Positions 1-32,741 of a stretch of DNA of 50,276 nucleotides are shown in pieces; within the stretch, counting starts at the first letter, position 1; every line of letters starts with the position of its first letter. The DNA is from Thiotrichales bacterium (GTDB lineage Bacteria; Pseudomonadota; Gammaproteobacteria; CAZUMV01): NCBI GenBank assembly GCA_012961935.1, contig DTYI01000244.1:1-50276 (forward strand). Reading direction: 5' to 3'. Both the position numbers and the translations under genes were made by a program. A model generated the notes under the pieces. That model ran no database searches. It was given only the letters and a program-made list of their open reading frames with translations, and was not told where the DNA came from.

Positions 1-2156
<2,156 letters not shown>

Positions 2157-2224
2157 TGATCCTCCAGTTTAGTCAAAACAACCTGTCGATAAATCTAACT
2201 ATAGAAGCTGTAATTCCAGGTGGA

Positions 2225-2238
2225 TTGATGCGGATCAA
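2225..2238 (-). promoter_or_regulatory. FNR-type box TTGAT-GCGG-ATCAA upstream of nifJ
   Basis: Perfect match to the TTGAT-N4-ATCAA consensus. On the minus strand a TATAGT -10-like hexamer (2198-2203) places the box centre about 41 nt upstream of the implied start site, which is class II geometry. Confidence 0.6.
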
Positions 2239-2497
2239 TAAAAGTTAAGATGTCTTCCAGTTGCCGTGTATTTTAGTCCCGAAACTGCATTGATCGTCTG
2301 GCGAATTCAAAATCAGCATGAACCATTAATCATAAATTCGAGGCCTGCGGGCTTTTTTTTGTGGAAACCCGGTCGTATTTTTATCAAAGTGTACGGTGAT
2401 GAATAATAGGGAGTGATTTCAGAAAGCGACGAAGTCTGGTTCGGCAAAATAAATGAGCAGGTGACTTTCTCGCGTTTCAATAACAATCAGTATTCTC

Positions 2498-4477
2498 ATG
2501 GAAGATAGAAATAATACAATTATTATCGTTTCTATTGGCTTTACGGCTGTCCTGGCGTTAATTGCTGCGCTTGTCCTGTTAACGTTGACGAAGCTTTATT
2601 CGGTCAATGTGGACATGCCCAGGCTTGTTGAAGAAGTTAGTATCAAGACAGGCGCCATACATACCATGCGTGATGCGATCCGCCTTCGCCAGCTTGATAT
2701 CAATAAAGCGCTTCATCTGGATGATATTTTTGCCAGAGATGAAATCAATATGAACCTGCTCCGCTACGCCACACAATATCGGCAGGCTGAACAAGTGCTG
2801 GATGGAATACCAAAAGGACCGCACGAGCAAAAAATTTATGCAGCACTCAAAGACACGACAAAAACGGCTTATTCTTATAATCTCAAGGCCATTGAATTAA
2901 TCATCGCGGGAGACAAAGGGGCATACGTCGAAGAGGTCTTGTCGAAAGCATTATTGCAGCAGGAAAAAGTGTTGGGACTGCTCAATGAGTATGTTGCGCT
3001 TCAGCAGCAGAATGCGGAAGATGCGATTGCAACAAATTACAGAGAGTATAAGAAAACGCGTAACTTGCTGGTAGCGCTTAGTACTATTGTTCTATTGTTA
3101 GCGGGTTTCATTGCCTTTCTGGTTATCAAACGCGCGTCGCGCAGTAATCGTGAAATTGTTCATCAGGCAAGTCACGATGCACTGACAGGTTTGATTAACC
3201 GACGTGAATTTGAACATCGTCTTGCGGATGCCGTCATGCAAGCGAAAACCCAGGATATAGAGCATGCCCTGATCTATCTGGATCTGGATCAGTTTAAAAT
3301 TATTAATGATACCTGTGGCCACATGGCGGGTGATGCTTTATTACAAAGAATTACCGCTGACCTCCAGTCCTATATTCGGCAAAGTGATAGCCTGGCAAGA
3401 TTGGGTGGTGATGAGTTTGCGATTATATTGTTAGATTGCAATCTCGAGGGTGCAGAAGTTATTGCTCAGGGCCTGATTGATGTGGTGAACAATATCCGCT
3501 TCACATGGGAAGAGCATGTTTTCAATGTCAGCGCCAGTGCGGGAGTCGTTCCTATTTCAAAGGATAGTGAGAACAGCGCGGTTGTCATGAGTGCCGCCGA
3601 TGCGGCCTGTTATGAGGCCAAAGATGCGGGGCGAAATGCTGTACGTACCAGTCAAAGTAGTAACCTGGAACCCAGCCAGCAGCAGGGTGATATATGGTGG
3701 GTGTCACGCATTAATCAGGCACTCGAACAAGACCGCTTTGAGCTATATGCCCAGGCAATTATCGCAACAAAAAATGATGAGGATATGTCGGCAGACTATG
3801 AGTTATTGTTACGCATGCGTGATCGGGAAGGAGCCATTGTTTTGCCGGGCGTTTTTATTCCTCCGGCTGAGCGATTTGGCTTGATGGTTAAACTGGATCG
3901 ATGGGTTGTATCGACAGCACTTGACTGGATAAGCGAGCATGGTGACGTACTTGGTGAGGCTTCTTTTTCGATAAATTTATCGGGTTCTTCAATAACCGAC
4001 CAAAGTTTTCAACGGTTTTTATCCGCAGTCATAAAGTCGTCCGATGTTGCGTCGGAGAGGCTACATTTTGAGATTACTGAAACCGCAATGATCGCTAATC
4101 TGGAGCTTGTATCGCAGTTTATTCATAACATGCAACAGATGGGCTGCAAATTTGCGCTGGATGATTTTGGTCGAGGTCTGTCTTCCTTCAGTTACCTTAA
4201 AACACTGCCGGTTGATTATGTGAAAATAGACGGAATGTTTATACGGGATATTGTGGACAACGCGGTTAACTTTGCGTTTGTAAAATCAATCGACGAAATT
4301 GCCAAAGCAATGGGTAAGAAAACCATTGCAGAGTATGTCGAAACCAAAGGCGCCCAAAATAAACTTCGGGATATCGGCGTAGATTATATTCAAGGTTATG
4401 CTATTCATAAGCCTGAACCGATTGATAATCTGTTGCTCAATGCGCCGGCAAGAAAAAAATTGCAGGAACAAAATTAG
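2498..4477 (+). CDS. Membrane-anchored sensor diguanylate cyclase/phosphodiesterase (GGDEF + EAL)
   Basis: 659-aa ORF with two TM segments flanking a helical periplasmic sensor region. It has a GGDEF motif (LARLGGDEFAIIL) with an RxxD I-site (RQSD) at canonical spacing. The EAL domain shows YELLLRMRD, FEITE, ALDDFG and KIDG motifs. Confidence 0.9.
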   Translation: MEDRNNTIIIVSIGFTAVLALIAALVLLTLTKLYSVNVDMPRLVEEVSIKTGAIHTMRDAIRLRQLDINKALHLDDIFARDEINMNLLRYATQYRQAEQVLDGIPKGPHEQKIYAALKDTTKTAYSYNLKAIELIIAGDKGAYVEEVLSKALLQQEKVLGLLNEYVALQQQNAEDAIATNYREYKKTRNLLVALSTIVLLLAGFIAFLVIKRASRSNREIVHQASHDALTGLINRREFEHRLADAVMQAKTQDIEHALIYLDLDQFKIINDTCGHMAGDALLQRITADLQSYIRQSDSLARLGGDEFAIILLDCNLEGAEVIAQGLIDVVNNIRFTWEEHVFNVSASAGVVPISKDSENSAVVMSAADAACYEAKDAGRNAVRTSQSSNLEPSQQQGDIWWVSRINQALEQDRFELYAQAIIATKNDEDMSADYELLLRMRDREGAIVLPGVFIPPAERFGLMVKLDRWVVSTALDWISEHGDVLGEASFSINLSGSSITDQSFQRFLSAVIKSSDVASERLHFEITETAMIANLELVSQFIHNMQQMGCKFALDDFGRGLSSFSYLKTLPVDYVKIDGMFIRDIVDNAVNFAFVKSIDEIAKAMGKKTIAEYVETKGAQNKLRDIGVDYIQGYAIHKPEPIDNLLLNAPARKKLQEQN

Positions 4478-4524: not shown

Positions 4525-5667
4525 CTAAAATCTTATTTTAACTTCTTTCTCATGCTCCATGCTTTCTATTGCTTCCTCCAGATCAATTTTCTGGTCGTTC
4601 CCAATTTTTTGTTCAGCCAAAATCTCAAACAGTTCTTTTTGTTCCAGGGTGTAGCTTTCACCAGTTTCTTTCTGGATATAGGCGGCCCAGGGTACAAATT
4701 TGGTGAGCGGAAATATTTGTCCTTCCCGGGGTGAAATGTCTATGTTGATACCGGAGACAAATAGCAGGTTTTTGTTTTGGTAACTGTGCTCCTTTACGAT
4801 GCTGCGGTAGGTTCGGTCGAACTCGATCTGGGTATTGATCTGGGCGGCGAGCAGCATCGGTTCCTTGCTGGTCACGATCCAGGGCATCGGATCAATCAGG
4901 TTGCCTTCCAGATGTGAGAGGCCCTCAATGTCACGTGAAAAGTGACGCTCAAAGTGAAACAGGTCAGCGGTTAGCAAGGAGCCAATCGGTTTTTTGGTCT
5001 CTGGCCATGCGTTGCCTGTGGCGGTGATGAACTCGGCTGAAGCCAGGAATGTTTTGCTCGTGCTTTGAGCGCGAATAAATCTGAAACGGTCATCATTCGC
5101 AACGGCAATCAACTTTTTCAGCGCAAGCATCAGACCTTCATCGCGGTGCGCAGAAAGCAACTGGTTATCCACTGTGATGAGGAAATCATCACCATTACGC
5201 TCGAGAAAAATGTTGTCCTGGGCGTAGTGGTATTCATCCAGATACCATTCGATAGTATGAAATATCTTGCCACAGTTTGCTGTGGCGCACTGGTCTTCTC
5301 TTTGCAGGCGACGGTAGTTGCCGAAGGTTGCATTCTCCGGGTCGTAGCCGACATGACTGGCCTGCACGATCACCATATCCTTGCCGTGGCTGGCATGCGG
5401 CCCATGCCGATCAGTGGCGACGATGCCGCCAACACGGCCATGATTAAAAGGAAAACCACCGAAGTGTTTGGCGAGCAGGATAATCGGATAGCCCTGGCTT
5501 TCGTCAGAACAGAATGCGCGTGATGGGGTGATCTTGCCGGGCTGCATGCCCAGCGAAAGTGCAAAGTTATAAAGCCGCGGTACAAACAGGCTGTAACGCA
5601 TCATCATGCCGTCGAGCTGAAAATTGCCCGGGGTGGTTTGAAGCTGTGAAGAGGCGAATGAATACAT
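4525..5667 (-). CDS. Conserved hypothetical cytoplasmic protein; possible LCIB-like beta-carbonic-anhydrase fold (hypothesis only)
   Basis: 380-aa ORF with no signal peptide or TM segment, lying directly downstream of the DAB-like operon on the same strand. It contains FCSDES (Cys53, Asp55), ASHVGYD (His105) and ANCGK (Cys132). This spacing resembles the Cys-His-Cys Zn site described for LCIB-family proteins. I did not recognise the family outright. Confidence 0.8.
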   Translation of the reverse strand: MYSFASSQLQTTPGNFQLDGMMMRYSLFVPRLYNFALSLGMQPGKITPSRAFCSDESQGYPIILLAKHFGGFPFNHGRVGGIVATDRHGPHASHGKDMVIVQASHVGYDPENATFGNYRRLQREDQCATANCGKIFHTIEWYLDEYHYAQDNIFLERNGDDFLITVDNQLLSAHRDEGLMLALKKLIAVANDDRFRFIRAQSTSKTFLASAEFITATGNAWPETKKPIGSLLTADLFHFERHFSRDIEGLSHLEGNLIDPMPWIVTSKEPMLLAAQINTQIEFDRTYRSIVKEHSYQNKNLLFVSGINIDISPREGQIFPLTKFVPWAAYIQKETGESYTLEQKELFEILAEQKIGNDQKIDLEEAIESMEHEKEVKIRF

Positions 5668-5793
5668 ATAAGCAGTTTATTTAGAATAAAAGCTTATTCT
5701 TTAGGCAAATCCCGGGGATGTCCAGAATTTTACGAAAATCCGGGTTAAGGAGCTTTTGTAGGCAAAGCTTCCGCTCCTGCTCACGCTCCTTAC

Positions 5794-7275
5794 CTACATC
5801 CCTGTAGGCACAATGATTCGCCAGTTACTTTCAGCGCTGGCGATGATGTCGAGGATCGCCTGTGGGTAGAAACCAAATACAAGCACCAGCAGGGAAATCA
5901 GGACCATCATCAATAGCTCTCGATTTTTCAGATCAACTGCGTCAATGACAGCTTCTCTATCAGCCGGGCCTAAAAATGCCCGGCGGTAGGTGTTGAGGAA
6001 ATAAGCCGCGCCCAGCACCATGGCAACAAGCGTGGCAAGCCCCACCCCAATATAAGCTTTAAAGGCGCTGAGGATAATCAGCAGCTCAGCCGGAAAACCG
6101 CTGGTGCCTGGAATGCCCATGCTGGCGAGGCCCAGGAACAGGAAGAAGCTTGTCAACAAAGGCATGCTTTTCGCTACCCCGCCCAGGCTGACGATATCGG
6201 TAGACCCCACACGCTGTTGCAGAAACCCTGTGAGCAGGAAAAGGCCCGAGGCAATCAGCGTAAAATTAAGCAATTGAAAAACAGCGCCCTGTAATCCCTG
6301 CGAGGTGAAGGTCGCCAGTCCAACAACGACCAGCCCAACATGGCTGAGGCTGGCATAGGCCAGCAGTCGCCGCAGGTTTGTTTGACTCAGTGCAGCGACG
6401 GCACCGTAGATTACACCGGCAATACCCAGGCCTGCCAGCAGCCACTGATAACTCAGCGCTGTCTCTGGTAGCAACGGCAGGACAAAACGCAGAATCCCAT
6501 AGGCGCCCAGTTTAAGCCCGACAATCGTGGCGAGTGTTGCCGGATGACCTTCCAGCGCCAGTACAGGCAGCCAGGTATGCATCGGCACCAACGGCGTTTT
6601 GACGCCAAAGCCGATTAGCAGCATGAAAAACACAGCGGTTTGATATCGATTTTCGCCGATGACAGATATGAGTCCCGGGTAGTTAAAAATATAGCTGCCA
6701 TCGGGTTGTATGGCGAGAATGACAAAGGCCAACAATAATGGCAGCCCGCCTGTCATCATGAACAGCACATATTTCGTCCCGGCGTAGCGACGATTGGGCC
6801 CCTGCCCCCAGAGGGTAATCAGGAAATACAGGGGTACCAGCGACAGTTCCCAGAACAGGAAAAACAGCACCGTATCCAGTGAAGTGAATATCCCGATAAC
6901 GACGGCCTGAAACAACAGCAGCAGCGCAAAATATAATTTGCTGAGTGAGTGGATGGCGTTCCAGGAAGCCAGAATGACCAGCAGAAATAGTAGCGATGTG
7001 GCGGGCAGAAAAAGCAAAGAAATACCATCAACGCCGAGCAGATAATGGATATTTAAAGTTGGAATCCAGGGTTTTGATTCGACAAACTGGAAGCCGGAAA
7101 GCTCGCTGTCAAAGCCGATAACGATCAGCAGGGTAACTGCCAGTGCGGTCAATGCTGTAAGCAGTGCAACCCAGCGCGCTTTGCGTGCAGGCGCGAGAGC
7201 CGTCAGACCAGCGCCAGTCAGCAGCAGAAGCATGAGCAAACTTAACCAGGGCAGATTGGATGTGTGCATGTCCAT
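5794..7275 (-). CDS. Complex-I/Mrp antiporter-like subunit (NuoM/NuoN/MrpD class), fifth gene of the DAB-like operon
   Basis: 493 aa and polytopic. Motifs are FLFWELSLVPLYFLI, GFGVKTPLVPMHTWLP, LKLGAYGILRF and RRLLAYASLSHVG. Its start overlaps the upstream stop by 1 nt (TGATG at 7275). Confidence 0.88.
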   Translation of the reverse strand: MDMHTSNLPWLSLLMLLLLTGAGLTALAPARKARWVALLTALTALAVTLLIVIGFDSELSGFQFVESKPWIPTLNIHYLLGVDGISLLFLPATSLLFLLVILASWNAIHSLSKLYFALLLLFQAVVIGIFTSLDTVLFFLFWELSLVPLYFLITLWGQGPNRRYAGTKYVLFMMTGGLPLLLAFVILAIQPDGSYIFNYPGLISVIGENRYQTAVFFMLLIGFGVKTPLVPMHTWLPVLALEGHPATLATIVGLKLGAYGILRFVLPLLPETALSYQWLLAGLGIAGVIYGAVAALSQTNLRRLLAYASLSHVGLVVVGLATFTSQGLQGAVFQLLNFTLIASGLFLLTGFLQQRVGSTDIVSLGGVAKSMPLLTSFFLFLGLASMGIPGTSGFPAELLIILSAFKAYIGVGLATLVAMVLGAAYFLNTYRRAFLGPADREAVIDAVDLKNRELLMMVLISLLVLVFGFYPQAILDIIASAESNWRIIVPTGM

Positions 7276-8777
7276 CAGTGAGCGCGCCCTTCAAAGTGTT
7301 GCGTTAAACCATCCAGTGGTTGTTCCAGCAGATCCAGCCACGGGTCCGAGAAAAAACCGATGCCTAGGATGATTAGAATCATGATGGCTGCCATCAAATT
7401 TTCAGACCATTTTGCTGGCGTCGTGTCCCAGCTTTGCCTGTTTTGTTCTGGCTTACTCAGAAACGCTCGCTGAAAAGCACGCAATAGAAAGGCGGCTGCA
7501 ACAACGTTGCCCAGAGCGGCTGCAATGGTAACCAGCGCGCCAAATTCAACAATCGAAGCTTCAAGTACAAAGTGAACGGCGTCGAATCCTGGCGTGCCCG
7601 GCATGCCGATAATAGCGAGACCAGCTATCAGAAAAGCGATGCCGACCCAGGGAATCGTCTCAAACAGCCCGCCCAGTTTTTGTATCGAAGTTGTTCGGGT
7701 ACGCAGCCAGACCAGTCCGGTCATAAAGATGAGTCCCGAAACCGCCAGGCCAAAATTAATTGACAGCATCAGGCTGCCTTCAAAACCTGCTCGACTCAGG
7801 GTGAACAGACCGATGACGAGAATGCTGGTATGGCTAATGACGGCATAGGCCAGAAGGCGTCGAATGTTATTCTGGCGCATGGCCAGTAAAGCCGCATAAA
7901 AGACACCGGTCACAGCGAATATGACGGCGATTTTATGCCAGTTGGTTACGCTTTCCGGCACGAGCGGGAAAACAAAACGCAACAGACCAAAGACACCAAC
8001 TTTCAGCCCCAGCAGAAAAACCGGCGCGACTGCGATGTTGCCGTGCTGCATGGCGATCGGCAGCCAGCCATGGAATGGAAACACGGGAATGCGTATGCCC
8101 AGACCATAAAAGAGTGAGAAAAAGATCAGCGTTGCGACCGTGGGTTCGATCGGTTTGCCGTCCAGCCGGTAGAGGTCAAAGCTCCAGATGCCGGCGGTAT
8201 TGTCCGCATAATTCCAGCCCAGCATAAACGTGCCGATCAGCAACAGTATGAAGCTCACCGTCATAAACTGTGTGTAGCGTGTGATCATCGGCTGGGCATC
8301 AATAAATGTAGCCCATCGGTACAACAGGTAGCCGACCAACATCATTTCTACACCTGAGGTCAGAACAAACCAGAGCAGATCCAGTGACACGAACTGACTC
8401 ATCAGGCTGGCCTGTATGGCTGCCATCACAGCCATTACGGGTGTGTTGTACAAGCGCCGCAGGATGATAAAGAATACGCCCAGCAAGCCAAATAAAGCAG
8501 TGAGCAGTACAAAGAGGACGGTCATGCCGTCCGCTGCGACATGGTAATTGATAAAGCCTAATAATCTGGAATGTTCAGCAAATTGCATCAGCCTGCTGCT
8601 GGCATCAAAACCATGATAGAGGGTAATTGCCAGTAACATTTCCGTGAGGGCTCCGACAATGGCCACAGCGATTGCCGGCCTCCCGCGAAGACGCCATAAA
8701 ACTGCACTCAGAATTAACGGCAGCAGTTGCAGACTGGTTAGCAGGGGCCAACTGGATTTAATTTCGGCAAATTCCAT
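7275..8777 (-). CDS. Divergent complex-I/Mrp antiporter-like subunit (NuoM/MrpD-like), fourth gene of the operon
   Basis: 500 aa and polytopic. The fold motifs are recognisable but altered: GLGIRIPVFPFHGWLPIAMQHGNIAVAP instead of GF-VK-P..H-WLP-AH-EAP, and SGVEMM instead of FWE. LKVGVFGLLRF and RRLLAYAVISHTS are retained. There is a TAATG overlap at 8777. Confidence 0.85.
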   Translation of the reverse strand: MEFAEIKSSWPLLTSLQLLPLILSAVLWRLRGRPAIAVAIVGALTEMLLAITLYHGFDASSRLMQFAEHSRLLGFINYHVAADGMTVLFVLLTALFGLLGVFFIILRRLYNTPVMAVMAAIQASLMSQFVSLDLLWFVLTSGVEMMLVGYLLYRWATFIDAQPMITRYTQFMTVSFILLLIGTFMLGWNYADNTAGIWSFDLYRLDGKPIEPTVATLIFFSLFYGLGIRIPVFPFHGWLPIAMQHGNIAVAPVFLLGLKVGVFGLLRFVFPLVPESVTNWHKIAVIFAVTGVFYAALLAMRQNNIRRLLAYAVISHTSILVIGLFTLSRAGFEGSLMLSINFGLAVSGLIFMTGLVWLRTRTTSIQKLGGLFETIPWVGIAFLIAGLAIIGMPGTPGFDAVHFVLEASIVEFGALVTIAAALGNVVAAAFLLRAFQRAFLSKPEQNRQSWDTTPAKWSENLMAAIMILIILGIGFFSDPWLDLLEQPLDGLTQHFEGRAH

Positions 8778-10348
8778 TACAACACCACCATGATGGTTGC
8801 CATGATGATGAGCAGTAAATAGCGCGGCTGGGCCAGCAGGTGGTCAATTTTTTCCAGATGACGGCCCAGGTAATTCACCAGTTTCATTAATGCACCACCG
8901 TCGCTCGGCAGGACTAAGCGGTCTTCAAGCCACTGCATTGCTTCGGCCAGCCACTCGAAAATAAACCCGAATAGCCCCCTGCCCTTGCCGACCTCGTTTG
9001 CAACCGTAAAGAGCCCCTGTTTGCTGGCTTCCAGTCGGGACAAGGTCGATAGCATGTTGGCATGTGAGGGGATTCCGATGAGGCGATCCACAACCTGTTC
9101 ATCGAACAACTGTGCTTCATGGGCAAGCGCACGGGTGGGTTTTACCAGCAACCAGTCTGACAGATCATCCAGCCAGAAACGCTGCATGGCAGCGGTATAA
9201 AGCCGGGGGTGTTTGCGTAGCCAGGCAGGCGCAGGTTTTGCCGGTTGTTGAACCTGCTGCATATAAGAAGGCGAGGAAAGAAATTGCCAGCTGCGCCAGA
9301 TCGCGTGCACGACCAGATGCAGCAACGCCAGATCAAACCAGCCCAGCCCGATCCAGACCAGCATCAGACCAACCTGCGTCAGTGTCGCAAACATCAGGGA
9401 TGTTTTGATGTCACTTTGCACCAGCCCGGCAAGCCAGGCGTAGAGGCTGGTCAGCAGTCCAATCATCAGGAGCATTATCATCAGTGCGGGCACCATTGTG
9501 AGCAATGGCTCCATGCGCAGCATCAGGTAAACACCTGCGTGTATCATCAACGCGCCGTAAAAAATGGTGCTGGACGGGGTCGGCCCTTCCAGCGCGCGCG
9601 TGACCCAGGATGAAAAAGGCAACTGTGCAGATTTCGCCAGCGCCGCCAGTAAAAAGCCGCCGATGATCAGGCCAATTTCCAGGGTCGGTATTGCTTTATC
9701 ATTTACGACGGTTGGGATTTCAGACCACTCGACACTGCCCAGCCAGATCAGTGAGAATACCAGCGCCAGCACAAACCCTGCGTCACCAATGCGGTTGGTG
9801 ACAAAGGCGCGCGTTGCATTGGCCGTTGCAGTGTTTCGGTGCCAGGCATAACCAATCAAAAGGTAGGAGCTGACTCCGGCCAGCTCCCAGCCGAAAAATG
9901 TGAATACTGCGCTACCTGCGGTGACGATGAGTAGCATCGCAGCGTTGAACAGGGATAGCACGAGGAAAAACCGCTGGAAGCCAGCTTCTCTGTGCAGATA
10001 GTTCACAGAAAAACGGGTCACCAGCAAACTGATAAAGGCAACCAGTGTCGCCATCACCAACACCAGCCGGTCAAACAGAAAACTCAGGTGAATCTGAATA
10101 CTGCCAATCGTCAGCCAGTCACCGACAATAATCTGCCCGGGAGCGTTGCCGCTCAGCGCGAGCCCGTCCAGAACAAGCAAAAGCAACAATGACAGGCTGA
10201 TGGCACCCAGCGCGACCCAAGCTGTTTCGCGCTCACCCGTCTCGCCCCGATTCCAGCCAAACAGATAGCCGACCGCGATCCATGCCGCTGCGAGTAGTGG
10301 CAGTGTTGGTATGAGCAGCGCAATCCAGGGATGCAGGGATTCAACCAT
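8777..10348 (-). CDS. dabB: NuoL/NdhF-like short antiporter subunit = DabB-type partner of DabA
   Basis: 523 aa. NuoL-type motifs are FFGWELAGVSSYLLIGY, TNRIGDAGF and AKSAQLPFSSWVTRALEGPTPSS..HAGVYLMLR. It lacks the long C-terminal lateral-helix extension of NuoL. It overlaps the dabA stop by 8 nt. Confidence 0.85.
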   Translation of the reverse strand: MVESLHPWIALLIPTLPLLAAAWIAVGYLFGWNRGETGERETAWVALGAISLSLLLLLVLDGLALSGNAPGQIIVGDWLTIGSIQIHLSFLFDRLVLVMATLVAFISLLVTRFSVNYLHREAGFQRFFLVLSLFNAAMLLIVTAGSAVFTFFGWELAGVSSYLLIGYAWHRNTATANATRAFVTNRIGDAGFVLALVFSLIWLGSVEWSEIPTVVNDKAIPTLEIGLIIGGFLLAALAKSAQLPFSSWVTRALEGPTPSSTIFYGALMIHAGVYLMLRMEPLLTMVPALMIMLLMIGLLTSLYAWLAGLVQSDIKTSLMFATLTQVGLMLVWIGLGWFDLALLHLVVHAIWRSWQFLSSPSYMQQVQQPAKPAPAWLRKHPRLYTAAMQRFWLDDLSDWLLVKPTRALAHEAQLFDEQVVDRLIGIPSHANMLSTLSRLEASKQGLFTVANEVGKGRGLFGFIFEWLAEAMQWLEDRLVLPSDGGALMKLVNYLGRHLEKIDHLLAQPRYLLLIIMATIMVVL

Positions 10349-13300
10349 GACTGGCTCGCTTAATCAGGGCTGGCGGCAAGTGATTTCGCTGACCGGCATA
10401 CCAGTCTGCTGAACGCGCTACCGTGGGTATCTGCTCCAGTTGTTCAGCCTGGGGTTGCCAGCGTTGCCAGCCGTGTTCCGGCTCGAAATAGTGAATCGCG
10501 TCCGTGTCTGGATCTTTGGCCGAGAGTAACAACCAGCCGTTTTCGACCAGTTGCCGAATCGGTGCCTGGCGTTTGTAAATTCCAGTCAGGACTTCCGTCG
10601 ATGCCTCGACCATCAGTTGCAGGCGCATCGGTTCGTGTATTGCGATCATTTGCTGGGGCAGGCCTGTGCGCAGGTCACTGGAGCCACCTTCCATGACGCC
10701 GAGCAGACCGGAAAGGTTGTGCATGATTTTTGAGCCGGCGCCATAGTAGTCATTATTAACGGTCGAAAAATAATATTCCAGATTAATGCCAACGCCGACC
10801 GGCCCAACGCTTAATAAAAGGTTTTCCAGCAAGCTACCTTCTGGATCAGTTGATGCGTCATATGAGATCAGGAAACAACGGCGGTCAAAAAAAGCACTGT
10901 GCGTGAAAGCGCGCCGCCCGACAAATCCCACGGCATTGGTGGCATGACCAAGCTCGGGTCTGGCCTGACTGAAATCAACCGCGCGACCGGCGATATGTCT
11001 GGCAGCCTGATCCAGGGAGGGATTGAGCGGCGCGGAGGCCAGTTTGCGGCAACGTTCATGGGCAGAGTGTTTTGCCGCCAGCTTGAGATCGCTAACCAGC
11101 TCGTTAAATCTGTCTCGTAGAGTGGCGGGTATCAGGTCGCGATCTTGCCAGAGAATATCCTCGTTACAGGTGTCGTGTTCAGCGCCCACAAACCAGCAAT
11201 CGTCAGGGATGGTAATGTTCTCTTCAGCCAGACGTTGCCGTACTTCGATATGGTTGGCCATGGCTGCAAAAACGCGTGCATTCGGGCCGCTGTATTTGCC
11301 GCTGCAGGCGCCGCATCCGTATGCGGCGGTATGTGGATTATTTTCGTTTCTGGAATAGTGGCCCATCATCACAACGAAGTGTCCAAAGCCGTTAGTCAGG
11401 CCATTGGTGCGCAGAAAGCCTGCCACAATTTTGGCCTGTTCCGCGATCGTAAAACCGTGCTGGTTGTGAGTGGCTGATCGCTGTTCATCCTCTGCTTCGA
11501 CGGTAAGTTTTAGCCTTGTACTCACATCATTATTAAAGAGCCGACTCAGATTGCTCCATTGCAGCGGCAGTAAAATTTTACTCGCCAGCGTAATCAATGT
11601 GGCAGGCGCTGCTGTTACGATGAGGCCTGCGGCGGTGAGTACAGAACGGCGGGTTTTCTGCATCAGCAGGGTTTTTAGTCGACTTTTGAATTGTTGACGG
11701 CGGCGATGTTTTTCTACGGCATTTTCTGCGCCGGGGCTGGCGACTTCTTCAATCTGATGGGTGGGTGTCTTCACGACTGGGCAAAGCGCCACGGGTTTTT
11801 GTTCATCCAGGCCCTGCCAGTTCATCACGATATCAAAAAAAGCGGCGGCGCCGAGTGTCTCGATGGTTGGGTTTAATGTTTCAAGATGTCTGCGTATGCC
11901 TTCCTCACGGTCATCCATACAAAAGATAACCTGAGCTGCCGGGCGGTCTGTCCGGTCAGCCCATAATCCACGTGCGTGATTTTTGCTGATGGCGGCAAAT
12001 ATCTGCTCACGGTAGTGATGCTCATAAGTCTGAAGCAGAAGAAAACCGGCAGTTTCGGGTTCGAGCCGGTCAATGCAGGCAAATAAAACGTTGATCTGTT
12101 CTGACTGCATGGCCCGGATGTCAGCACCACAAAGCCCCAGGTGCTGTGCCAGCCGGAATAATTTCCAGCCATGCTCGTAAACGTTATATCCCGTTTGTTT
12201 TTTACCGGCCGGGCTTTGCTGCCAGGTCCAGATCATATGCGCCAGTTGATGCCAGGTTTCGGCAGGGTAATTATCGACCGTAGACCGTTCTATTAACTGC
12301 TGGGCAAGTGTAATCAGATATTCCGGTAGCTGCTGGTTATAAAGCGCGTCACGTACCAGAAATTCAGAGTTGTTGCGGCGAAAGTAGCCACGAATATCAG
12401 ACAGGTTGGCGGCGACCAGCCATTTTTCACGGCAGAGCCGGTTGGCAAACAGATGTTCCAGCACCAGCCGTACAGCCAGGTAATCCATTATTTGCGTATT
12501 CGTTTCCAGGCCTTCGTAACCAGGATGGTTATGACGCCAGTAGAACATGCCTGACCAGCCAGGCAAATCCAGCGCCAGCCGTTTGATGTAGCCAGCCCAG
12601 CTGGATTTTGGGAGACCCATGCGCATGAGCTCGGTCATGATCGTATCCAGCGGATCATCGGGCAAGGAATCGATGTGTTCCTCCCAGTCCGGCAGCTGAT
12701 TGAGCATCCAGCTCAGATCAGTTTTTGCGCTGTTTTTCCACGCCCGATAAAAGCCACCTTGTTGATCCGATGCTTGCCAGGCAGCGATGCCCTGATCCAG
12801 CCAGTTGGCAATATAGTGCTGAAAATACGGCAAAATCTCGTCCTGGATATCAGTGCCGGTGAGCTTTTGTAGCAGTCCTCGGAGCGTAAATTTGTTACCC
12901 AGTTGCAAAAAAAGGGCTTCACGCTGTGTTCTGGTTTCCTGTTTGATCAGTCTGTCGATCCGGGCTGTTTTTGTATCCTCACTTTCTTCTGTAAAGAGGT
13001 TGGCAAACAATCGTTGCGCATCGTCTGGCGCCAGATCAACCAGCGCCTCGGGGTGAAGCATTTGCACATCCAGATCCAGCGTTTCCAGACAGGCCGCCCA
13101 AAGATCCTGAATGGCCAAAGATTCAGAGGCAAGCCCTTGCTTGTTTGCGCGTTCCAGTATGCTGGAGCGCGCATCTTCTGACACATCACGCTGTATTTTG
13201 TCCAGCGCATATGCTTCATCAACCTGCCAGTTGAACTGGCAGGGAGAAATACCTTTGAGTGGAAACAGCAACCCGACGCGATAAATATCTCGGCGGAAAA

Positions 13301-13628
13301 TACGGCCAGAGTCCGTTTCAAAAACGGCCTCGTTTGCCTGCAGGGATTTATCTTTATCGAGGACCGTGTCCAGATCGGTGTTGGTTATACGCCCTTGTTT
13401 ATAGTGGTCGCGGAATTGCGCCTGTGACTGGTAACCGTAAGCACCAGTCAGTTCATGTGTGGTTTTTAGTGCATCCTGAAACTTCAGATGCTGAAAGCCA
13501 TGCAGCGTGTTGTGATGGACAAAGTCTTTGATGGGGGCCTGGGCAGGAAGAATATGACTGAACTCATCCAGCAGATCGAGTAATTGTTCCTGAGGGGTTC
13601 TTTGTGTGGATGTATGATCGGCTGCCAT
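10341..13628 (-). CDS. dabA: DabA (DUF2309) inorganic-carbon pump subunit, unusually long (1095 aa)
   Basis: N-terminal PIKDFVHHNTLHGF motif. A beta-CA-like CxDxR motif FCMDDRE (Cys570 codon 11919-11921, Asp572 codon 11913-11915). GHYSRNENNPHTAAYGCGAC has His757 (11358-11360) and Cys772 (11313-11315) 15 residues apart. As I recall, this is the same spacing as the H. neapolitanus DabA2 ligands H524/C539. It is flanked by a NuoL-like gene. Confidence 0.88.
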   Translation of the reverse strand: MAADHTSTQRTPQEQLLDLLDEFSHILPAQAPIKDFVHHNTLHGFQHLKFQDALKTTHELTGAYGYQSQAQFRDHYKQGRITNTDLDTVLDKDKSLQANEAVFETDSGRIFRRDIYRVGLLFPLKGISPCQFNWQVDEAYALDKIQRDVSEDARSSILERANKQGLASESLAIQDLWAACLETLDLDVQMLHPEALVDLAPDDAQRLFANLFTEESEDTKTARIDRLIKQETRTQREALFLQLGNKFTLRGLLQKLTGTDIQDEILPYFQHYIANWLDQGIAAWQASDQQGGFYRAWKNSAKTDLSWMLNQLPDWEEHIDSLPDDPLDTIMTELMRMGLPKSSWAGYIKRLALDLPGWSGMFYWRHNHPGYEGLETNTQIMDYLAVRLVLEHLFANRLCREKWLVAANLSDIRGYFRRNNSEFLVRDALYNQQLPEYLITLAQQLIERSTVDNYPAETWHQLAHMIWTWQQSPAGKKQTGYNVYEHGWKLFRLAQHLGLCGADIRAMQSEQINVLFACIDRLEPETAGFLLLQTYEHHYREQIFAAISKNHARGLWADRTDRPAAQVIFCMDDREEGIRRHLETLNPTIETLGAAAFFDIVMNWQGLDEQKPVALCPVVKTPTHQIEEVASPGAENAVEKHRRRQQFKSRLKTLLMQKTRRSVLTAAGLIVTAAPATLITLASKILLPLQWSNLSRLFNNDVSTRLKLTVEAEDEQRSATHNQHGFTIAEQAKIVAGFLRTNGLTNGFGHFVVMMGHYSRNENNPHTAAYGCGACSGKYSGPNARVFAAMANHIEVRQRLAEENITIPDDCWFVGAEHDTCNEDILWQDRDLIPATLRDRFNELVSDLKLAAKHSAHERCRKLASAPLNPSLDQAARHIAGRAVDFSQARPELGHATNAVGFVGRRAFTHSAFFDRRCFLISYDASTDPEGSLLENLLLSVGPVGVGINLEYYFSTVNNDYYGAGSKIMHNLSGLLGVMEGGSSDLRTGLPQQMIAIHEPMRLQLMVEASTEVLTGIYKRQAPIRQLVENGWLLLSAKDPDTDAIHYFEPEHGWQRWQPQAEQLEQIPTVARSADWYAGQRNHLPPALIKRASHG

Positions 13629-13632
13629 CAGT

Positions 13633-15135
13633 TCAGGCTCCCAAAAGCAGTCGTTGGAATTCGTAAATCGTGGGGTTGATCAGTTGCAGTAATGGCGCCG
13701 GGTAGAAGCCGAGAATAATAATGCCCGCCGTCAGGATAGCAGCGGCAAGCATTTCCTGCGGACGCAGATCCTTGACATCGGCCATGGCTGATTTAGTCGG
13801 GCCGGTAAAAAGATACTTCACCGTCCTGATGCCGTAAGCCACACTGATCAGAATGCCCAGGCTGAGTATCATGATCACCCATCCCCAGGCCTCGAAACCG
13901 CCCAGTAATGCATGCAGTTCAGCAATAAAACCCGCGGTGCCGGGAAAGCCAACTGTTGCGATGAGGGCGATGATAATGAAAAAGGCAAACCGGGGGGTGG
14001 TCTGTAGCAATGATCCGTAATCGTTTACGTCACGGGTGTGGGTTCGTTCATACAGCAGGCCAATCAGCATGAACAGGGCTCCGGCCACCAGACCATGCGC
14101 AACCATTTGATAGACGGCGGCGATCATGCCATTTACGTTTAGCGCGGCGATTCCCAGTAGCACCACACCCATGTGTGAGACTGAGGAGTAAGCGATCATC
14201 TTTTTAAGATCAGTCTGACGCCAGGCAAGCAGGCCACCATAGATAATCCCGATCAGGGCCAGCGCCAGTAAAATTGTCTGCATTGCCTGGGCCGCATGTG
14301 GCAGCATGCCTGTGACACGGATAAGACCATAGGAACCCATTTTGAGCAGGATCCCTGAGAGTAAAATGCTCACCGAACTGGGTGCTTCGACGTGTGCAAT
14401 GGGCAACCAGCCGTGTAACGGAAAGATCGGCATTTTGACGCCGAAACCAATCAGCAGGCCGAGGAAAATCAGGATTTGTTGGCCGCTGTCCAGCAATCTT
14501 GCGCCTTCGGCCATGTTGGCAAATGAGAAGGAGTGTCCGGGTGTGGCGTCGAACAGCACCAGAAGGCTCAATAGCATGAACATCGAACCACCCATGGTGT
14601 AGAGCACAAAATTCAACGAAGCAGATTGGCGCTGTTTGCCGCCCCAGCGATCAATCAGGAAAAACAGCGGGATCAGGGTCAGTTCCCAGAAGACATAAAA
14701 CAAGGCCCAGTCCTGCGCCATGAAAACACCCAGCATGGCTGTTTCCAGTAATAACATCAGTAGGTAATAGCCTTTGGTTTGCCTGGTGATTGAGGCCGAA
14801 GCCAGAATAGCCGCCCAGCAGAGTAGTGCTGCGAGCAAGATCAGAGGATAGGAAAAGCCATCGACCCCGAGCGAGAATGAGGTACCTAACCGGCTGTGCC
14901 AGGTGTGAAAGTAGCTTTGCCACAAGCCTGTTTCAGTGGGTGTCACATCGCCCCAGAGCAGCAGCCAGGTAGCGTAGACCAGTGTCAGGGTTGTAAAAAC
15001 AATTGCGGTATAGCGGAAAAGCCTGGGGTACCTGGCCGGTAGCAGCGCAATCAAAATAGCGCCGCTTAAAGGCAGTAACAGTAAAAACAGTAGTGAGGAT
15101 GACCCCATGTTTTCAGAAAATCCGATCGTAACCAC
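13633..15135 (-). CDS. NuoM/NdhD-like antiporter subunit, first gene of the DAB-like operon
   Basis: 500 aa with a canonical NuoM motif set: FYVFWELTLIPLFFLIDRWGG, GFGVKMPIFPLHGWLPIAHVEAPSSVS, LLKMGSYGLIR and DLKKMIAYSSVSHMG. Its stop is 4 nt before the dabA ATG. The start may be GTG at 15135 or ATG at 15108. Confidence 0.88.
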   Translation of the reverse strand: MVTIGFSENMGSSSLLFLLLLPLSGAILIALLPARYPRLFRYTAIVFTTLTLVYATWLLLWGDVTPTETGLWQSYFHTWHSRLGTSFSLGVDGFSYPLILLAALLCWAAILASASITRQTKGYYLLMLLLETAMLGVFMAQDWALFYVFWELTLIPLFFLIDRWGGKQRQSASLNFVLYTMGGSMFMLLSLLVLFDATPGHSFSFANMAEGARLLDSGQQILIFLGLLIGFGVKMPIFPLHGWLPIAHVEAPSSVSILLSGILLKMGSYGLIRVTGMLPHAAQAMQTILLALALIGIIYGGLLAWRQTDLKKMIAYSSVSHMGVVLLGIAALNVNGMIAAVYQMVAHGLVAGALFMLIGLLYERTHTRDVNDYGSLLQTTPRFAFFIIIALIATVGFPGTAGFIAELHALLGGFEAWGWVIMILSLGILISVAYGIRTVKYLFTGPTKSAMADVKDLRPQEMLAAAILTAGIIILGFYPAPLLQLINPTIYEFQRLLLGA

Positions 15136-15308: not shown

Positions 15309-16493
15309 TTATCCTGGCTGCCCGTCCACCCGAGGACGGATCAGGATCGGGGTGTAGACCCAGAGAAAAATCAGAAACGCCAGTGTCCAGAGTATGCCTG
15401 AGATCAGGATGGCAAAAGTTTCCAGCCCGGATACCAGGGGGAAAAAGACCCGTACCACAGCCGCAATATTAAGCAGTACAAATGACCAGAGCATTACCGG
15501 CTGGAGTACCATTTCCCTGCCGGTGTGACCGATGGAAACGCGCGCCATCATGCCCAGTGTCAGTCCGCCGATGACGCCTGCTGTAAAAGCGTGCATCGCC
15601 AGCATCGGTGAAACAAGACCCGCAACGGCTGCGGCCTTGAGGGCAAAACCAATGACCATCCAGGCATATCCAAATTGCAGCACCCATATCAGTGGTACCG
15701 ATAGCATTTTGTTCGTCCACCACCCAGCCAGGCGGATGCCATGCAGGATCATCAACGCCAAGGACAGGATAACCACCCAGACACCATTAGCAGCAACGCC
15801 ATCGACGACGACCAGCAAAAGCATGCCTGCAATCAGGGCGTACTCAACCACTGGCCAGCTTCGTGTTTTAAATGTCATGCCTAATCCGCGTTCTGTGAAA
15901 AAACCGATCACACGTCCACCGATTATCGTAATCAGCAACAGGATTAAATCTGTTTCTAACAGCATGGCGGTTGAAGCCCATGCCGGTGCAAAATAGACAG
16001 CGGCATGGAGGGCTGCCATTACCAGTAAAAGCGGGATAAAAATCAGGTTGTGGATTTTGCCGGCACGGATGAGTGGTGTCGCAAGCGCGGCTGCGAGCAT
16101 GGGCAAAAAGCTGATGTCCAGCAGAGCAGTCAACCAGACCGGGACAGCGGGAATCAGCAGCGAAAACCGTGGCAACAGAAAAAGTAAAAGTAACGCCGCC
16201 AACCAGAATCCTTTCACTGTTTTGATTCCGGTCCAGTTGGGGACAGCAGTCAGGAGAAAGCCTGCAATGACAGCGACCGAATATCCAAACAACATTTCGT
16301 TGGCGTGCCAGAGCTGGAAGGTAATGGGTCCTTCAACCACGCGGCCAGCCTTATACATCCATAACCACAACGGCATCAGGATGACAGCGACAACCCCGGC
16401 AAACAGGAAAAAAGGTCGGAAGCCTAATTCAAACAGGGCAAACTTGTTTGCTGGGATTTTTGTAGTCGGTTCTTGCAGTGGAATGGTTGCCAT
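15309..16493 (-). CDS. nnrS: NnrS family membrane protein (NO-response heme/copper protein)
   Basis: 394 aa with about 12 TM segments. The N-terminal FALFELGFRPFFLFAG motif is typical of NnrS. A Crp/Fnr regulator is divergent, with an FNR/Dnr-type box between the two genes. Confidence 0.82.
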   Translation of the reverse strand: MATIPLQEPTTKIPANKFALFELGFRPFFLFAGVVAVILMPLWLWMYKAGRVVEGPITFQLWHANEMLFGYSVAVIAGFLLTAVPNWTGIKTVKGFWLAALLLLFLLPRFSLLIPAVPVWLTALLDISFLPMLAAALATPLIRAGKIHNLIFIPLLLVMAALHAAVYFAPAWASTAMLLETDLILLLITIIGGRVIGFFTERGLGMTFKTRSWPVVEYALIAGMLLLVVVDGVAANGVWVVILSLALMILHGIRLAGWWTNKMLSVPLIWVLQFGYAWMVIGFALKAAAVAGLVSPMLAMHAFTAGVIGGLTLGMMARVSIGHTGREMVLQPVMLWSFVLLNIAAVVRVFFPLVSGLETFAILISGILWTLAFLIFLWVYTPILIRPRVDGQPG

Positions 16494-16550
16494 GGTGAAA
16501 ATCTTAGTATTACAGTCGGTTATTATGGTTAGGGATATTGGGCGTTGCCC

Positions 16551-16564
16551 TTGATTTATGTCAA
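16551..16564 (-). promoter_or_regulatory. FNR/Dnr-type box TTGAT-TTAT-GTCAA in the nnrS / crp-fnr divergent region
   Basis: 9 of 10 positions match TTGAT-N4-ATCAA. A minus-strand CATAAT -10-like hexamer (16522-16527) puts the box centre about 42 nt upstream of the implied nnrS start site. Confidence 0.55.
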
Positions 16565-17253
16565 GTCTTCACGGAACATGCGGAATAATGAATAAAGACG
16601 AGATCCGAAAACTTCACCTGTTTGCCGCATTAGACGCGCAACAGTTTGACCATGTTAGTGAAACATCTGTTGCTTCAAAACTGGTTCCTCATCAAAATCT
16701 TTTTTTTCAGGGCGAATCGGCCTCCCATTTCTATCTGTTAGTTTCTGGCCAAATAAAACTCTACCTGTTGTCACCGGAAGGTGAAGAAAAGATTATTGAT
16801 ATTATCCAGCCAGGACAGTTTTTTGCCGAAGCAGTCATGTTTATGGAAGGTCAGCGCTATCCTGTCAACGCGACCGCGCTTGTGGAGTCTGAAGTGCTTG
16901 CTTTTGATAACCATGTTTATCGATCGATCATTGAAAATTCACCCAGGGTTTCGCTGGCAGTACTGTCTGATTTTAGTCGGCGTATGCACTTTATGCTGAA
17001 TGAAATTGACAGATTGGCTTTACATAGCGCCAGCTATCGGTTTGTTTATTATTTGCTGGAGAACGTGAGCGAAGAAGAAAGCCAGATTGACCTGGTGATA
17101 TCAAAACAGACGATTGCTTCCCAGCTCTCGATTAAGCCAGAGACACTTTCGCGGATCCTTAAGCGACTTAGATCAGAAGGCCTGGTGGAAGCGGATGGTC
17201 GACAGATCAAAATTCTGGATCGTGAGGCTTTGCGAGCTGTGTTGTTGAGGTAA
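16558..17253 (+). CDS. Crp/Fnr-family transcription factor, Dnr/NnrR-like (no FNR Cys cluster); the true start is probably ATG 16588
   Basis: Contains a cNMP-binding-like beta-roll plus a C-terminal HTH carrying the FNR-type E--SR recognition motif (PETLSRILKRL). It has no N-terminal Cys cluster. The track start at 16558 lies inside the palindromic box, so MNKDEIRKL at 16588 is more plausible. Confidence 0.85.
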   Translation: MSSLHGTCGIMNKDEIRKLHLFAALDAQQFDHVSETSVASKLVPHQNLFFQGESASHFYLLVSGQIKLYLLSPEGEEKIIDIIQPGQFFAEAVMFMEGQRYPVNATALVESEVLAFDNHVYRSIIENSPRVSLAVLSDFSRRMHFMLNEIDRLALHSASYRFVYYLLENVSEEESQIDLVISKQTIASQLSIKPETLSRILKRLRSEGLVEADGRQIKILDREALRAVLLR

Positions 17254-31421: not shown

Positions 31422-32741
31422 TTAGCCATCAGCCCAGGTATCGTTGCTGATGTTGAGTAGCCAGTTTTCAGCGTACAACGCTTCTAGCTGACGATTACCA
31501 TCCATTGGGGTCAGGCCTCCGGACCCTTTAACTTTGCCAACTTTTCCTTCTTTGGTCAGGTTGTAGACCATGGCGACAGAGATCCCATATTGTGGGCCGA
31601 CCAGACTGTAGCAAGTGTTAACCCAGCTGGGGACATGAGGCTCAGGATCCTTGCCTGCCAGCATTGAAGCAACCGCTGCGGCACATATCTTGGCTTCAGA
31701 GTTTGCCGCATAACCGGATTTAGGCAGAGGCGCCTGAATGGCGGAGTCGCCGATCACGTGAACAAAAGGCGCGACCTTGGATTCCCATGTGTGGTGATTT
31801 ACAGGGCACCAGCCAGACTTATCCGTTAACCCGGCAGCATGTGCGAGCTCACCTGCCTTTTGTGCAGGCACTACATTCAGCACGTCGGCTTTAACGGCCT
31901 CTTCCAGTGGGCCAGCGTAAGCCGTTTTGGATTTGACGTCGACTTTGCTGACTTTCCCGTCGGGAGCCGCGACAAACTCGATCATGCTCTTGTCGGTGCC
32001 ATAACCATAAAGATCTTTCCAGCCCTTGACGAACAGTTTTTGCTTGGAAAATTTGGGCTTGGCATCCAGAATCAGGATTTTGGATTTCGGCTTGTGTTTT
32101 TTAAAGTAGTTTGCAATCAGGCTGACCCGCTCATAAGGTCCTGGCGGACAGCGGAACGGGTTTGGCGGCGGCGCAATTACAAAAACACCACCATCACGCA
32201 TGCTGGCAATCTGGTTGCGCAGAACAGTTGTCTGTGAACCCGCTTTCCAGGCGTGAGGTACCATGTTGACATCATTGGCCGTGTAGCCCTCGATTGTGTC
32301 ATAGCGGAAATCAATGCCTGGTGACAAAATCAGCCGGTCATATTCCACCTTGGAGCCAGAGGCAAGGCGGACATTTTTACCGTCTACGTCTATAGCGCTG
32401 ACCCAGTCATGAATAACATTGATGCCGTACTTGTTTATTAGTGCGTCGTAGGAATGCGTAATGGAGTCAATATCGCGCAATCCACCGAGCACCCAGTTAC
32501 TACCTGGACATGTGGTGAAAGTTTTGTTGTATTCAATCAGCGTGACCTGAATACTGGGGTCAAACTTTTTGAGGTACTTGGCTGCGGAAGCACCACCAAA
32601 ACCACCGCCGACCACAACAACTTTTGCGGGGCCTGCTTTTTTGGTGGCCTTGGGTGTCGGGCTACTCGCGCAACCAGTTAAGGCCAGTCCGGTAGACCCG
32701 CCTGCGAGTTTAAGAAAATTACGTCTGTTGAGTTTTGCCAT
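31422..32741 (-). CDS. fccB: Flavocytochrome c sulfide dehydrogenase, flavoprotein subunit
   Basis: 439 aa with a Tat signal (RRNFLKLAGG) and the FAD fold VVVVGGGFGGASAAKY. It lies immediately downstream of a small c-type cytochrome gene. Confidence 0.85.
   Translation of the reverse strand: MAKLNRRNFLKLAGGSTGLALTGCASSPTPKATKKAGPAKVVVVGGGFGGASAAKYLKKFDPSIQVTLIEYNKTFTTCPGSNWVLGGLRDIDSITHSYDALINKYGINVIHDWVSAIDVDGKNVRLASGSKVEYDRLILSPGIDFRYDTIEGYTANDVNMVPHAWKAGSQTTVLRNQIASMRDGGVFVIAPPPNPFRCPPGPYERVSLIANYFKKHKPKSKILILDAKPKFSKQKLFVKGWKDLYGYGTDKSMIEFVAAPDGKVSKVDVKSKTAYAGPLEEAVKADVLNVVPAQKAGELAHAAGLTDKSGWCPVNHHTWESKVAPFVHVIGDSAIQAPLPKSGYAANSEAKICAAAVASMLAGKDPEPHVPSWVNTCYSLVGPQYGISVAMVYNLTKEGKVGKVKGSGGLTPMDGNRQLEALYAENWLLNISNDTWADG

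Follow-up and report, generated by a model that had tools for sequence, protein, structure and literature searches.

Contig DTYI01000244.1 of the Thiotrichales bacterium assembly GCA_012961935.1 (50,276 nucleotides (nt), the whole stretch analysed here and referred to as the window) encodes, next to a DAB-type gene cluster, a 380-residue protein that belongs to the LCIB family of theta/beta-type carbonic anhydrase (CA)-like proteins. This family assignment is secure, as the fold, the profile comparisons, the register of the putative zinc ligands and their conservation agree. The product of open reading frame (ORF) 4525..5667 (hereafter the window protein) represents a long form of the family with an additional β-rich subdomain, and probably functions as a soluble, cytoplasmic, zinc-dependent CA with a role in inorganic-carbon supply, expressed beside the DAB cluster from a probable promoter of its own. 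The kind of protein is already known, as databases tag many of its relatives with the Pfam family PF18599; new are the long-form architecture, the breadth of its occurrence in bacteria and its operonic association with energy-coupled CO2-uptake modules.

LCIB proteins, or θ-CAs, are described in the literature from green algae, diatoms, haptophytes and hornworts, and the algal CO2-concentrating mechanism (CCM) cannot do without LCIB. Published DAB complexes consist of DabA and DabB (DAB2) or of DabA, DabB and a small DabC (DAB1). DAB systems and CAs each rescue CA-free Escherichia coli, and they therefore serve the same need. Early work on LCIB reportedly mentioned bacterial homologs; in the searchable literature, we found no description of a bacterial long-form clade, nor of a link between LCIB and DAB.

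The ORF lies on the reverse strand and starts with ATG, and an identical public protein, from a Thiotrichales metagenome-assembled genome, is labelled 'hypothetical protein'. The window protein is predicted to be soluble, with a Kyte–Doolittle maximum of 0.75 over 19 residues and no hydrophobic segment, and inspection of its sequence found no signal-like N terminus. Three short motifs, FCSDES, SHVGYD and ANCGK, begin at residues 52, 104 and 130, respectively, and place Cys53, His105 and Cys132 at successive spacings of 52 and 27 residues; the protein has three cysteines in total, two of them within the motifs. When the window protein was shuffled, 0.6% of the shuffles contained a C-x-D...H...C pattern spaced in a comparable way. 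By itself the motif would carry little weight, and the argument depends on its conservation.

The relationship to LCIB did not surface from the single sequence, which matched nothing, but only through a better-scoring homolog, profile–profile comparison and a fold search. The window protein alone gave no Pfam or NCBIfam match at E ≤ 10; among PDB sequences it matched just a chance cupin fragment (E about 1), and a full-length hidden Markov model of its close homologs found no match there. Its relatives, 2,553 among 90%-identity clusters, are more informative. Many of those at 56–61% identity carry a precomputed match to PF18599 (LCIB_C_CA), and homologs in this range, when rescanned, scored 23–30 bits against a gathering score of 25, some of them above it, with matches spanning residues ~25–145, equivalent to profile positions 5–126 of 223. 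At E ≤ 1e-3, PF18599 matched 23 of the 38 close homologs and 12 of the 16 distant ones (best E value, 1.9e-8). Alignment of a diverse family profile to the diatom LCIBs with hhalign gave a probability of 86% (E = 5.1e-6) over residues 71–144, superseding a weak result obtained earlier with a shallow profile (probability 16%, P = 0.0015). The sequence-profile relationship to the LCIB domain thus covers only the N-terminal ~125 residues; the C-terminal half alone gave no significant profile alignment with diatom LCIB, and its correspondence to LCIB comes solely from superposition of the predicted structure. Classification as a canonical β-CA was rejected, as the window protein has no match to PF00484 (Pro_CA) at E ≤ 10, reads C-S-D-E-S without an Arg at +4 and lacks HxxC. 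Failing both the β-CA motifs and the β-CA profile, the protein is securely filed as a divergent long-form LCIB/θ-CA member.

Two AlphaFold models, both predicted structures, adopt the β-CA-like LCIB fold. The first, built from 38 homologs, had a mean predicted local distance difference test (pLDDT) score of 76.9 and a predicted template modelling (pTM) score of 0.80, with low confidence in the ligand loops, and its eight best Foldseek matches in the PDB were all LCIB-family entries (probability 1.00, target TM scores 0.58–0.75), every match beyond them having E > 0.4. The second model, from a more diverse alignment, reached a pLDDT of 89.2 and a pTM of 0.88 with confident ligand loops, and returned the same eight entries (probability 1.00, E values of 1e-8 to 8e-5, target TM scores 0.69–0.78), among them 6KFS, PtLCIB4 of Phaeodactylum tricornutum with its S47R and H88A mutants, and CrLCIB and CrLCIC of Chlamydomonas; it superimposes on 5B5Y_A at a root mean square deviation of 3.6 Å. 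A clear gap follows in the lists, the next match after the LCIB entries having an E value of 0.1 or worse. Canonical β-CAs were absent from the top 50 Foldseek matches, and NDH-1 or Cup structures were not among the matches of either model.

The residue register places the three motifs on the PtLCIB4 zinc site. A phmmer alignment of the homolog P0117 with PtLCIB4 chain 5B5Y_A, weak in itself (E = 0.26), pairs AFCSDE with SLCSDE, SHVG with SHVG and sCGk with CCGS, and was transferred to the window protein through the close-homolog alignment. The chain index, offset by 15 from the published numbering, was fixed by the mutant names S47R and H88A (Ser62 and His103 of the chain being Ser47 and His88, respectively). 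Window residues Cys53, Ser54, Asp55, His91, His105 and Cys132 thereby correspond to PtLCIB4 Cys46, Ser47, Asp48, His88, His102 and Cys126, so that all three ligands and the adjacent Asp have counterparts, and hhalign gives the same register. Cys53, Asp55, His105 and Cys132 are invariant in 38 homologs with 56–89% identity and, together with Glu56, in 16 sequences down to 31% identity, algal ones included. His91 lies in a conserved His-rich loop (His88, His91, His94 and Asp97) and is invariant among close homologs, varying across the whole subfamily.

A first-pass annotation had likened this Cys/His pattern to PtLCIB4 Cys46/His102/Cys126, called the protein soluble and placed its gene downstream of a DAB operon. 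On re-check of the sequence, its ORF, motifs and codon coordinates are all exact, the hydropathy profile agrees with it, and the gene indeed follows the last gene of the DabA cluster on the same strand after 126 bp; the PtLCIB4 residue numbers that it gave are confirmed by the mutant names. The likeness to LCIB that it had suggested, and the profile, structural and conservation checks that it had proposed, are borne out by the homologs' Pfam matches and hhalign, by both models, which match LCIB-family entries first, and by the invariant ligands in the 38 close and 16 diverse sequences; none of the findings that it had named as counter-evidence was made.

By analogy with these enzymes, Cys53, His105 and Cys132 would bind Zn2+ with water or hydroxide as the fourth ligand, and Asp55 would activate the zinc-bound water, so that the hydroxide attacks CO2 to form bicarbonate, and the reverse. 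Like LCIB and β-CAs, the protein probably acts as a dimer. Constitutive activity has been reported for PtLCIB3 and PtLCIB4, and an active enzyme is favoured, on sequence grounds, by the set of ligands and by the Ser that occupies the position of PtLCIB4 Ser47; the cellular role of such an enzyme would be the rapid interconversion of CO2 and bicarbonate for inorganic-carbon supply.

The window protein differs from classical LCIB proteins in length, with 380 residues against 198–248 in the known structures, and its Foldseek alignments extend over ~330 columns against these 198–248-residue targets. The models contain a confident β-rich block at residues ~153–240, flanked by the helix downstream of Cys132 and by the C-terminal strands, and we read residues ~150–255, with approximate boundaries, as a putative inserted subdomain. 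In the second fold search, the LCIB entries are followed by weak matches (~85–110 columns, probability 0.3–0.5) to the small C-terminal domain of acetyl-CoA synthetase-type adenylating enzymes, which may reflect the shape of this predicted subdomain (about 4903–5220).

The long form is a compact family: an exhaustive profile search of 1.84 billion representatives yielded 471 sequences at E ≤ 1e-3, of which 155 at E ≤ 1e-30. At least 561 species-representative genomes carry a relative, and nearly all of them are Gammaproteobacteria, including Competibacteraceae, Chromatiaceae, Sedimenticolaceae, Thiotrichales, Thiohalomonadaceae and others, many of which are sulfur oxidisers. Eukaryotic members occur in Paulinella micropora, in the dinoflagellates Durusdinium, Polarella and Togula and in the cryptophyte Hemiselmis, some of them being named 'LCIB/C beta carbonic anhydrase domain-containing protein' in UniRef. 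The long form is therefore not a bacterial oddity, as several algal lineages have it. One member of 486 residues (P0144) carries a fused response-regulator receiver (REC) domain at its C terminus and may be a signalling-coupled variant or a fusion made in gene calling.

The genomic context was compared first within the close clade, defined as loci whose LCIB-like protein is 77–89% identical to the window protein. A five-gene DAB cluster precedes the LCIB-like gene in four distinct loci: the window, L086/L087 (40-bp gap), L092 and L093 (75 bp each), with the gene upstream of the LCIB-like gene being 91–95% identical in L092/L093. In L084/L085 and L088, the slot between the same flanking genes holds, in place of the DAB cluster, an Ehr-type complex-I-like module of six genes (NuoL-like, NuoH, a ~227-residue membrane protein, NuoM/N-like, NuoCD-like and NuoB-like), and the LCIB-like gene begins about 9 bp after the last of them in L084/L088. 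The NuoCD-like subunit has no CxxC pairs, so that the Ni/Fe cysteines are absent, whereas the NuoB-like subunit retains its cysteines; this matches the published definition of Ehr complexes and means that the module is neither a formate hydrogenlyase nor a genuine [NiFe] hydrogenase. In a DNA comparison of the window with L084, homology sets in right at the start codon of the LCIB-like gene and resumes at NnrS. The DAB cluster and the Ehr module are thus alternative cassettes, and the LCIB-like gene is a constant flank.

In the window, the LCIB-like gene may be transcribed separately. The 126-bp spacer upstream of it shows no T-tract terminator (folding z-score −2.2) and contains, just before the start codon, the sigma-70-like candidate TGGACA-N17-AAGAAT, which is conserved by eye in the orthologous spacers of L092 and L093. 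One such scan match is within chance for the region, so that the evidence for the candidate is its conservation, which suggests that the gene has a promoter of its own. By contrast, the gaps of 40 bp in L086 and about 9 bp in L084/L088 leave no room for a promoter, and the gene is therefore co-transcribed with the membrane module in these loci. The −10-like hexamer of L093 stops only about 6 nt short of the ATG, so that the transcript would be leaderless or nearly so, and a Shine–Dalgarno sequence is not evident upstream of the LCIB-like gene in the window.

To place this association in a wider frame, 80 species-representative loci at 54–60% identity, with about 1.0 Mb of flank in total, were surveyed. 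DabA lies within the recovered flanks (10 kb) of four of the 80 (L007, L013, L035 and L059), always in a cluster of the five-gene type and in three kinds of arrangement (upstream on the same strand, downstream on the same strand, and divergent), as compared with 0.25–0.67 expected loci (P about 1e-4 to 5e-3). SulP transporters occur at seven of the 80 loci, against about one expected; in L003 (8165-9919) the SulP gene is the immediate upstream neighbour of the LCIB-like gene in the same orientation, and in L033 and L042 (both ~8155-9834) it is so on the opposite strand. Unbiased neighbour clustering found no dominant partner, the MsrA, sensor, ABC and GGDEF-EAL genes being unspecific. In the reverse direction, three five-gene DAB clusters found through DabA (L089–L091) have unrelated genes and no LCIB-like gene in their recovered flanks; this DabA-based metagenome scan returned three loci, two with informative flanks, and samples the reciprocal frequency poorly. 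None of four distant Ehr-type modules (L094–L097) has an LCIB-like gene. The tie to inorganic-carbon uptake is thus statistically real but facultative and lineage-specific. The new pairing with a DabA complex that the first-pass annotation had envisaged stands in part: the close-clade linkage and the above-chance co-occurrence with DabA, and also with SulP, hold among homologs, whereas a fixed partnership does not, since most homologs stand alone, DabA clusters occur without the gene, the Ehr module can take the place of DAB, and the gene seems to have its own promoter.

The occasional recruitment of a cytoplasmic CA next to DAB or SulP is the most economical reading of these data. The gene would be placed beside DAB or SulP in a minority of lineages because all of these proteins serve the cytoplasmic pool of bicarbonate and CO2, and the probable promoter suggests that the window protein may be an alternative or complement to the energy-coupled DAB pump and not a pump subunit. 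A complementary role might, speculatively, consist in providing CO2 to, or taking it away from, enzymes such as the pyruvate:ferredoxin oxidoreductase (PFOR) encoded nearby, and separate transcription may reflect separate or reciprocal regulation relative to DAB. Several points weigh against a CA working in carbon supply alongside DAB. The window protein itself has no sequence match, its membership resting on homologs, profiles and fold. Fold and ligands do not guarantee CA activity, as Chlamydomonas LCIB and LCIC, recombinant and native, show no in vitro CA activity although their site is intact. Inorganic-carbon genes are missing from the vicinity of about 90% of homologs, and the DAB tie may be incidental. 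Neither RuBisCO nor carboxysome genes were found within the 50-kb window. Finally, a free cytoplasmic CA would be expected to run down the bicarbonate that a pump has accumulated, and simple cooperation with DAB is therefore hard to envisage unless the two are expressed separately or a carboxysome-type CCM plays no part.

The incidental nature of the tie is the core of the strongest competing explanation, which we regard as possible but rather unlikely: that the protein is the same LCIB-type CA, but a housekeeping one flanking a cassette-exchange slot, with the DAB adjacency functionally meaningless. The exchange of DAB and Ehr cassettes against a constant backbone in the window and L084, the stand-alone position of most homologs among unrelated genes, the DAB clusters (L089–L091) and Ehr modules (L094–L097) without the gene and the likely presence of a conserved promoter of its own would all be expected of such an enzyme. 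It accounts less well for the adjacency to DabA in four distant species and three arrangements, above chance, for the enrichment of SulP, and for the short gaps in L086 and L084/L088, where the gene is co-transcribed with the membrane module.

It is improbable that the protein has retained the fold and metal site of LCIB without being a CA in vivo, acting instead as a silent or regulated binder of CO2 or bicarbonate, or as a hydrolase of carbonyl sulfide (COS) or carbon disulfide (CS2). COS and CS2 hydrolases have the β-CA fold, and some of them occur in sulfur oxidisers. The inactivity of CrLCIB/LCIC in vitro, the many sulfur-oxidising hosts, the flavocytochrome-c sulfide dehydrogenase encoded in the window and a ~100-residue subdomain with no assigned role are compatible with such a function, whereas the Ser between Cys and Asp, shared with the constitutively active PtLCIB4 and changed in its deposited S47R mutant, the strict conservation of the catalytic-type residues across bacteria and algae, which fits an enzymatic role, and the linkage to CO2/bicarbonate systems rather than sulfur genes speak against it.

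About as improbable, in our assessment, is a detachable CO2-hydration module that docks on complex-I-like machines, both the five-gene DAB and Ehr types, which would render its reaction directional in the manner of CupA/CupB. Such docking would fit the observation that every close-clade locus (≥77% identity) has the gene immediately 3′ of a module, at 9–126 bp, the modules being of two unrelated catalytic types and the Ehr-type one having no known substrate and a NuoCD-like subunit without Ni/Fe cysteines; algal LCIB itself has been proposed in the literature to act directionally, like the Cup proteins. Yet none of the three independent DAB clusters and none of the four distant Ehr modules has the gene, about 90% of the family has no such module nearby, the window DabA has a complete zinc site of its own, the window protein has no membrane-anchoring or amphipathic segment, and its sequence is highly conserved with or without an adjacent module.

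Three further candidates were dismissed. An obligate DAB partner or subunit is ruled out by the clusters ascertained through DabA that lack the gene and by the presence of DabA near only four of 80 loci, and a Pfam search found no similarity of the window protein to DabA, DabB or PF00361. A general Ehr/LCIB pairing is ruled out by the four distant Ehr modules. The window protein is not a surrogate for a defective DabA site, because the zinc site of the window DabA is complete: it has both C570-x-D-x-R and His757-x14-Cys772, spaced like Cys351/Asp353/Arg355/His524/Cys539 in the zinc site of DabA2.

The window protein can be compared with several known systems. PtLCIB4 and PtLCIB3 (5B5Y, 5B5Z and 5B60) are likewise soluble, share its fold (target TM scores 0.76–0.78) and carry Cys-Ser-Asp...His...Cys in register. 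However, the window protein shows only 11–13% identity over the structural alignment, has ~100 extra residues, falls as a single sequence below Pfam detection, and is bacterial and cytoplasmic rather than plastidial. Chlamydomonas LCIB and LCIC (5K5W and 5B5X) also share the fold (target TM scores 0.69–0.74); they are associated with inorganic-carbon acquisition and are proposed to handle CO2 in the carbon-using compartment, similar to the role proposed here. Unlike the window protein, which is encoded by a single gene in a host without a pyrenoid, they assemble into a hetero-complex that is redistributed around the pyrenoid and lacks in vitro activity, and they have a bulkier residue where the window protein has a Ser next to the ligand Cys. 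The algal and Paulinella long forms have the same full-length architecture, including the subdomain, and the same invariant ligands at 36–44% identity to the window protein over its whole length, but are eukaryotic and bear N-terminal extensions of 100–175 residues, presumably for targeting.

Canonical β-CAs (PF00484, Can/CynT) share the Cys2-His zinc coordination predicted for the window protein, the adjacent Asp and a role in the supply of bicarbonate in the cytoplasm. They differ in having C-x-D-x-R and HxxC, whereas the window protein has C-S-D-E-S and a His and Cys 27 residues apart. β-CA genes commonly lie next to SulP transporters, and the LCIB-like gene is sometimes found beside SulP in the same way. 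DabA and CupA/CupB are CO2-hydrating zinc proteins encoded with complex-I-type antiporter-like subunits, and the resemblance is one of functional analogy only, as the window protein has no sequence or fold match to DabA or CupA/CupB (ChpY/ChpX). Moreover, DabA has transmembrane 'finger' helices and requires DabB, whereas the window protein is predicted to be fully soluble and its homologs are usually encoded alone.

In the bacterial branch, LCIB-type catalysis and the way it interacts with a CO2 pump could be studied in a genetically tractable setting. The branch is also relevant to the origin of the algal LCIB-domain proteins, which may plausibly involve transfer of genes between bacteria and algae, and provides a candidate CA class for annotating sulfur-oxidising and wastewater Gammaproteobacteria, in which these proteins are currently 'hypothetical'. 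Docking on complex-I-like machines, if true, would provide a bacterial model of how algal LCIB could trap CO2 in one direction, and would give an Ehr-type complex its first function, the energised handling of CO2.

Table 1 Coordinates of the LCIB-like gene, its predicted zinc site and the adjoining DAB cluster in the window
Feature	Position	Strand	Basis
Long-form LCIB-family (theta/beta-type) carbonic-anhydrase-like coding sequence, 380 residues	4525..5667	-	ORF; fold; homologs' PF18599 matches; hhalign 86%
Cys53 codon TGT, predicted zinc ligand 1 (PtLCIB4 Cys46)	5509..5511	-	Register; invariant
Asp55 codon GAC (PtLCIB4 Asp48), predicted to orient/deprotonate zinc-bound water	5503..5505	-	Register; invariant
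His91 codon (PtLCIB4 His88, changed in the deposited H88A mutant)	5395..5397	-	Register
His105 codon CAT, predicted zinc ligand 2 (PtLCIB4 His102)	5353..5355	-	Register; hhalign; invariant
Cys132 codon TGT, predicted zinc ligand 3 (PtLCIB4 Cys126)	5272..5274	-	Register; hhalign; invariant
Putative β-rich subdomain defining the long form, ~100 residues (~150-255), approximate boundaries	4903..5220	-	Models; Foldseek; Pfam coverage
126-bp spacer between last DAB gene and LCIB-like gene	5668..5793	-	No terminator-like site
Sigma-70-like promoter candidate TGGACA-N17-AAGAAT	5696..5724	-	Scan match; kept in L092 and L093
Five-gene DAB-type cluster upstream of LCIB-like gene	5794..15135	-	Pfam
PF00361 protein of DAB cluster	13633-15135	-	Pfam
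DabA, 1095 residues	10341-13628	-	Pfam
NuoL-like DabB	8777-10348	-	Pfam
PF00361 protein of DAB cluster	7275-8777	-	Pfam
PF00361 protein, last gene of DAB cluster	5794-7275	-	Pfam

The five-gene DAB unit (Table 1), with its 1095-residue DabA, one NuoL-like and three full-size PF00361 antiporter-like proteins, resembles the membrane arm of complex I, and recurs in L086, L007, L013, L035, L059, L089, L090 and L091. The Ehr-type module, located at 3164-9991 in L084 and at 329-3850 in L088 and found again in L094–L097, is widespread in sulfur-oxidising Gammaproteobacteria (Thioalbus and Thiolapillus). The NuoH and NuoM/N-like genes of L084 appear split, by frameshifts or assembly errors, and in L094 a divergent SulP/STAS gene (1389-3143) stands beside the module.

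Downstream of the LCIB-like gene, the window contains a convergent GGDEF-EAL gene (2498-4477), followed by a partial PFOR gene on the reverse strand (3-2156). The encoded PFOR is 86% identical in amino-acid sequence to that of L086 (10859-14446), which follows the LCIB-like gene directly on the same strand after a 125-bp gap, whereas the window has the GGDEF-EAL gene inserted between the two. A flavocytochrome-c sulfide dehydrogenase flavoprotein is encoded on the reverse strand at 31422-32741 and indicates that the host is a sulfide oxidiser. The DAB cluster is flanked by a pair of genes for NnrS and a Crp/Fnr-type regulator (15309-17253); together with the sulfide dehydrogenase, this pair fits a sulfide oxidiser with a possibly nitric oxide- and oxygen-responsive lifestyle, and the regulator could control the adjacent DAB cluster.

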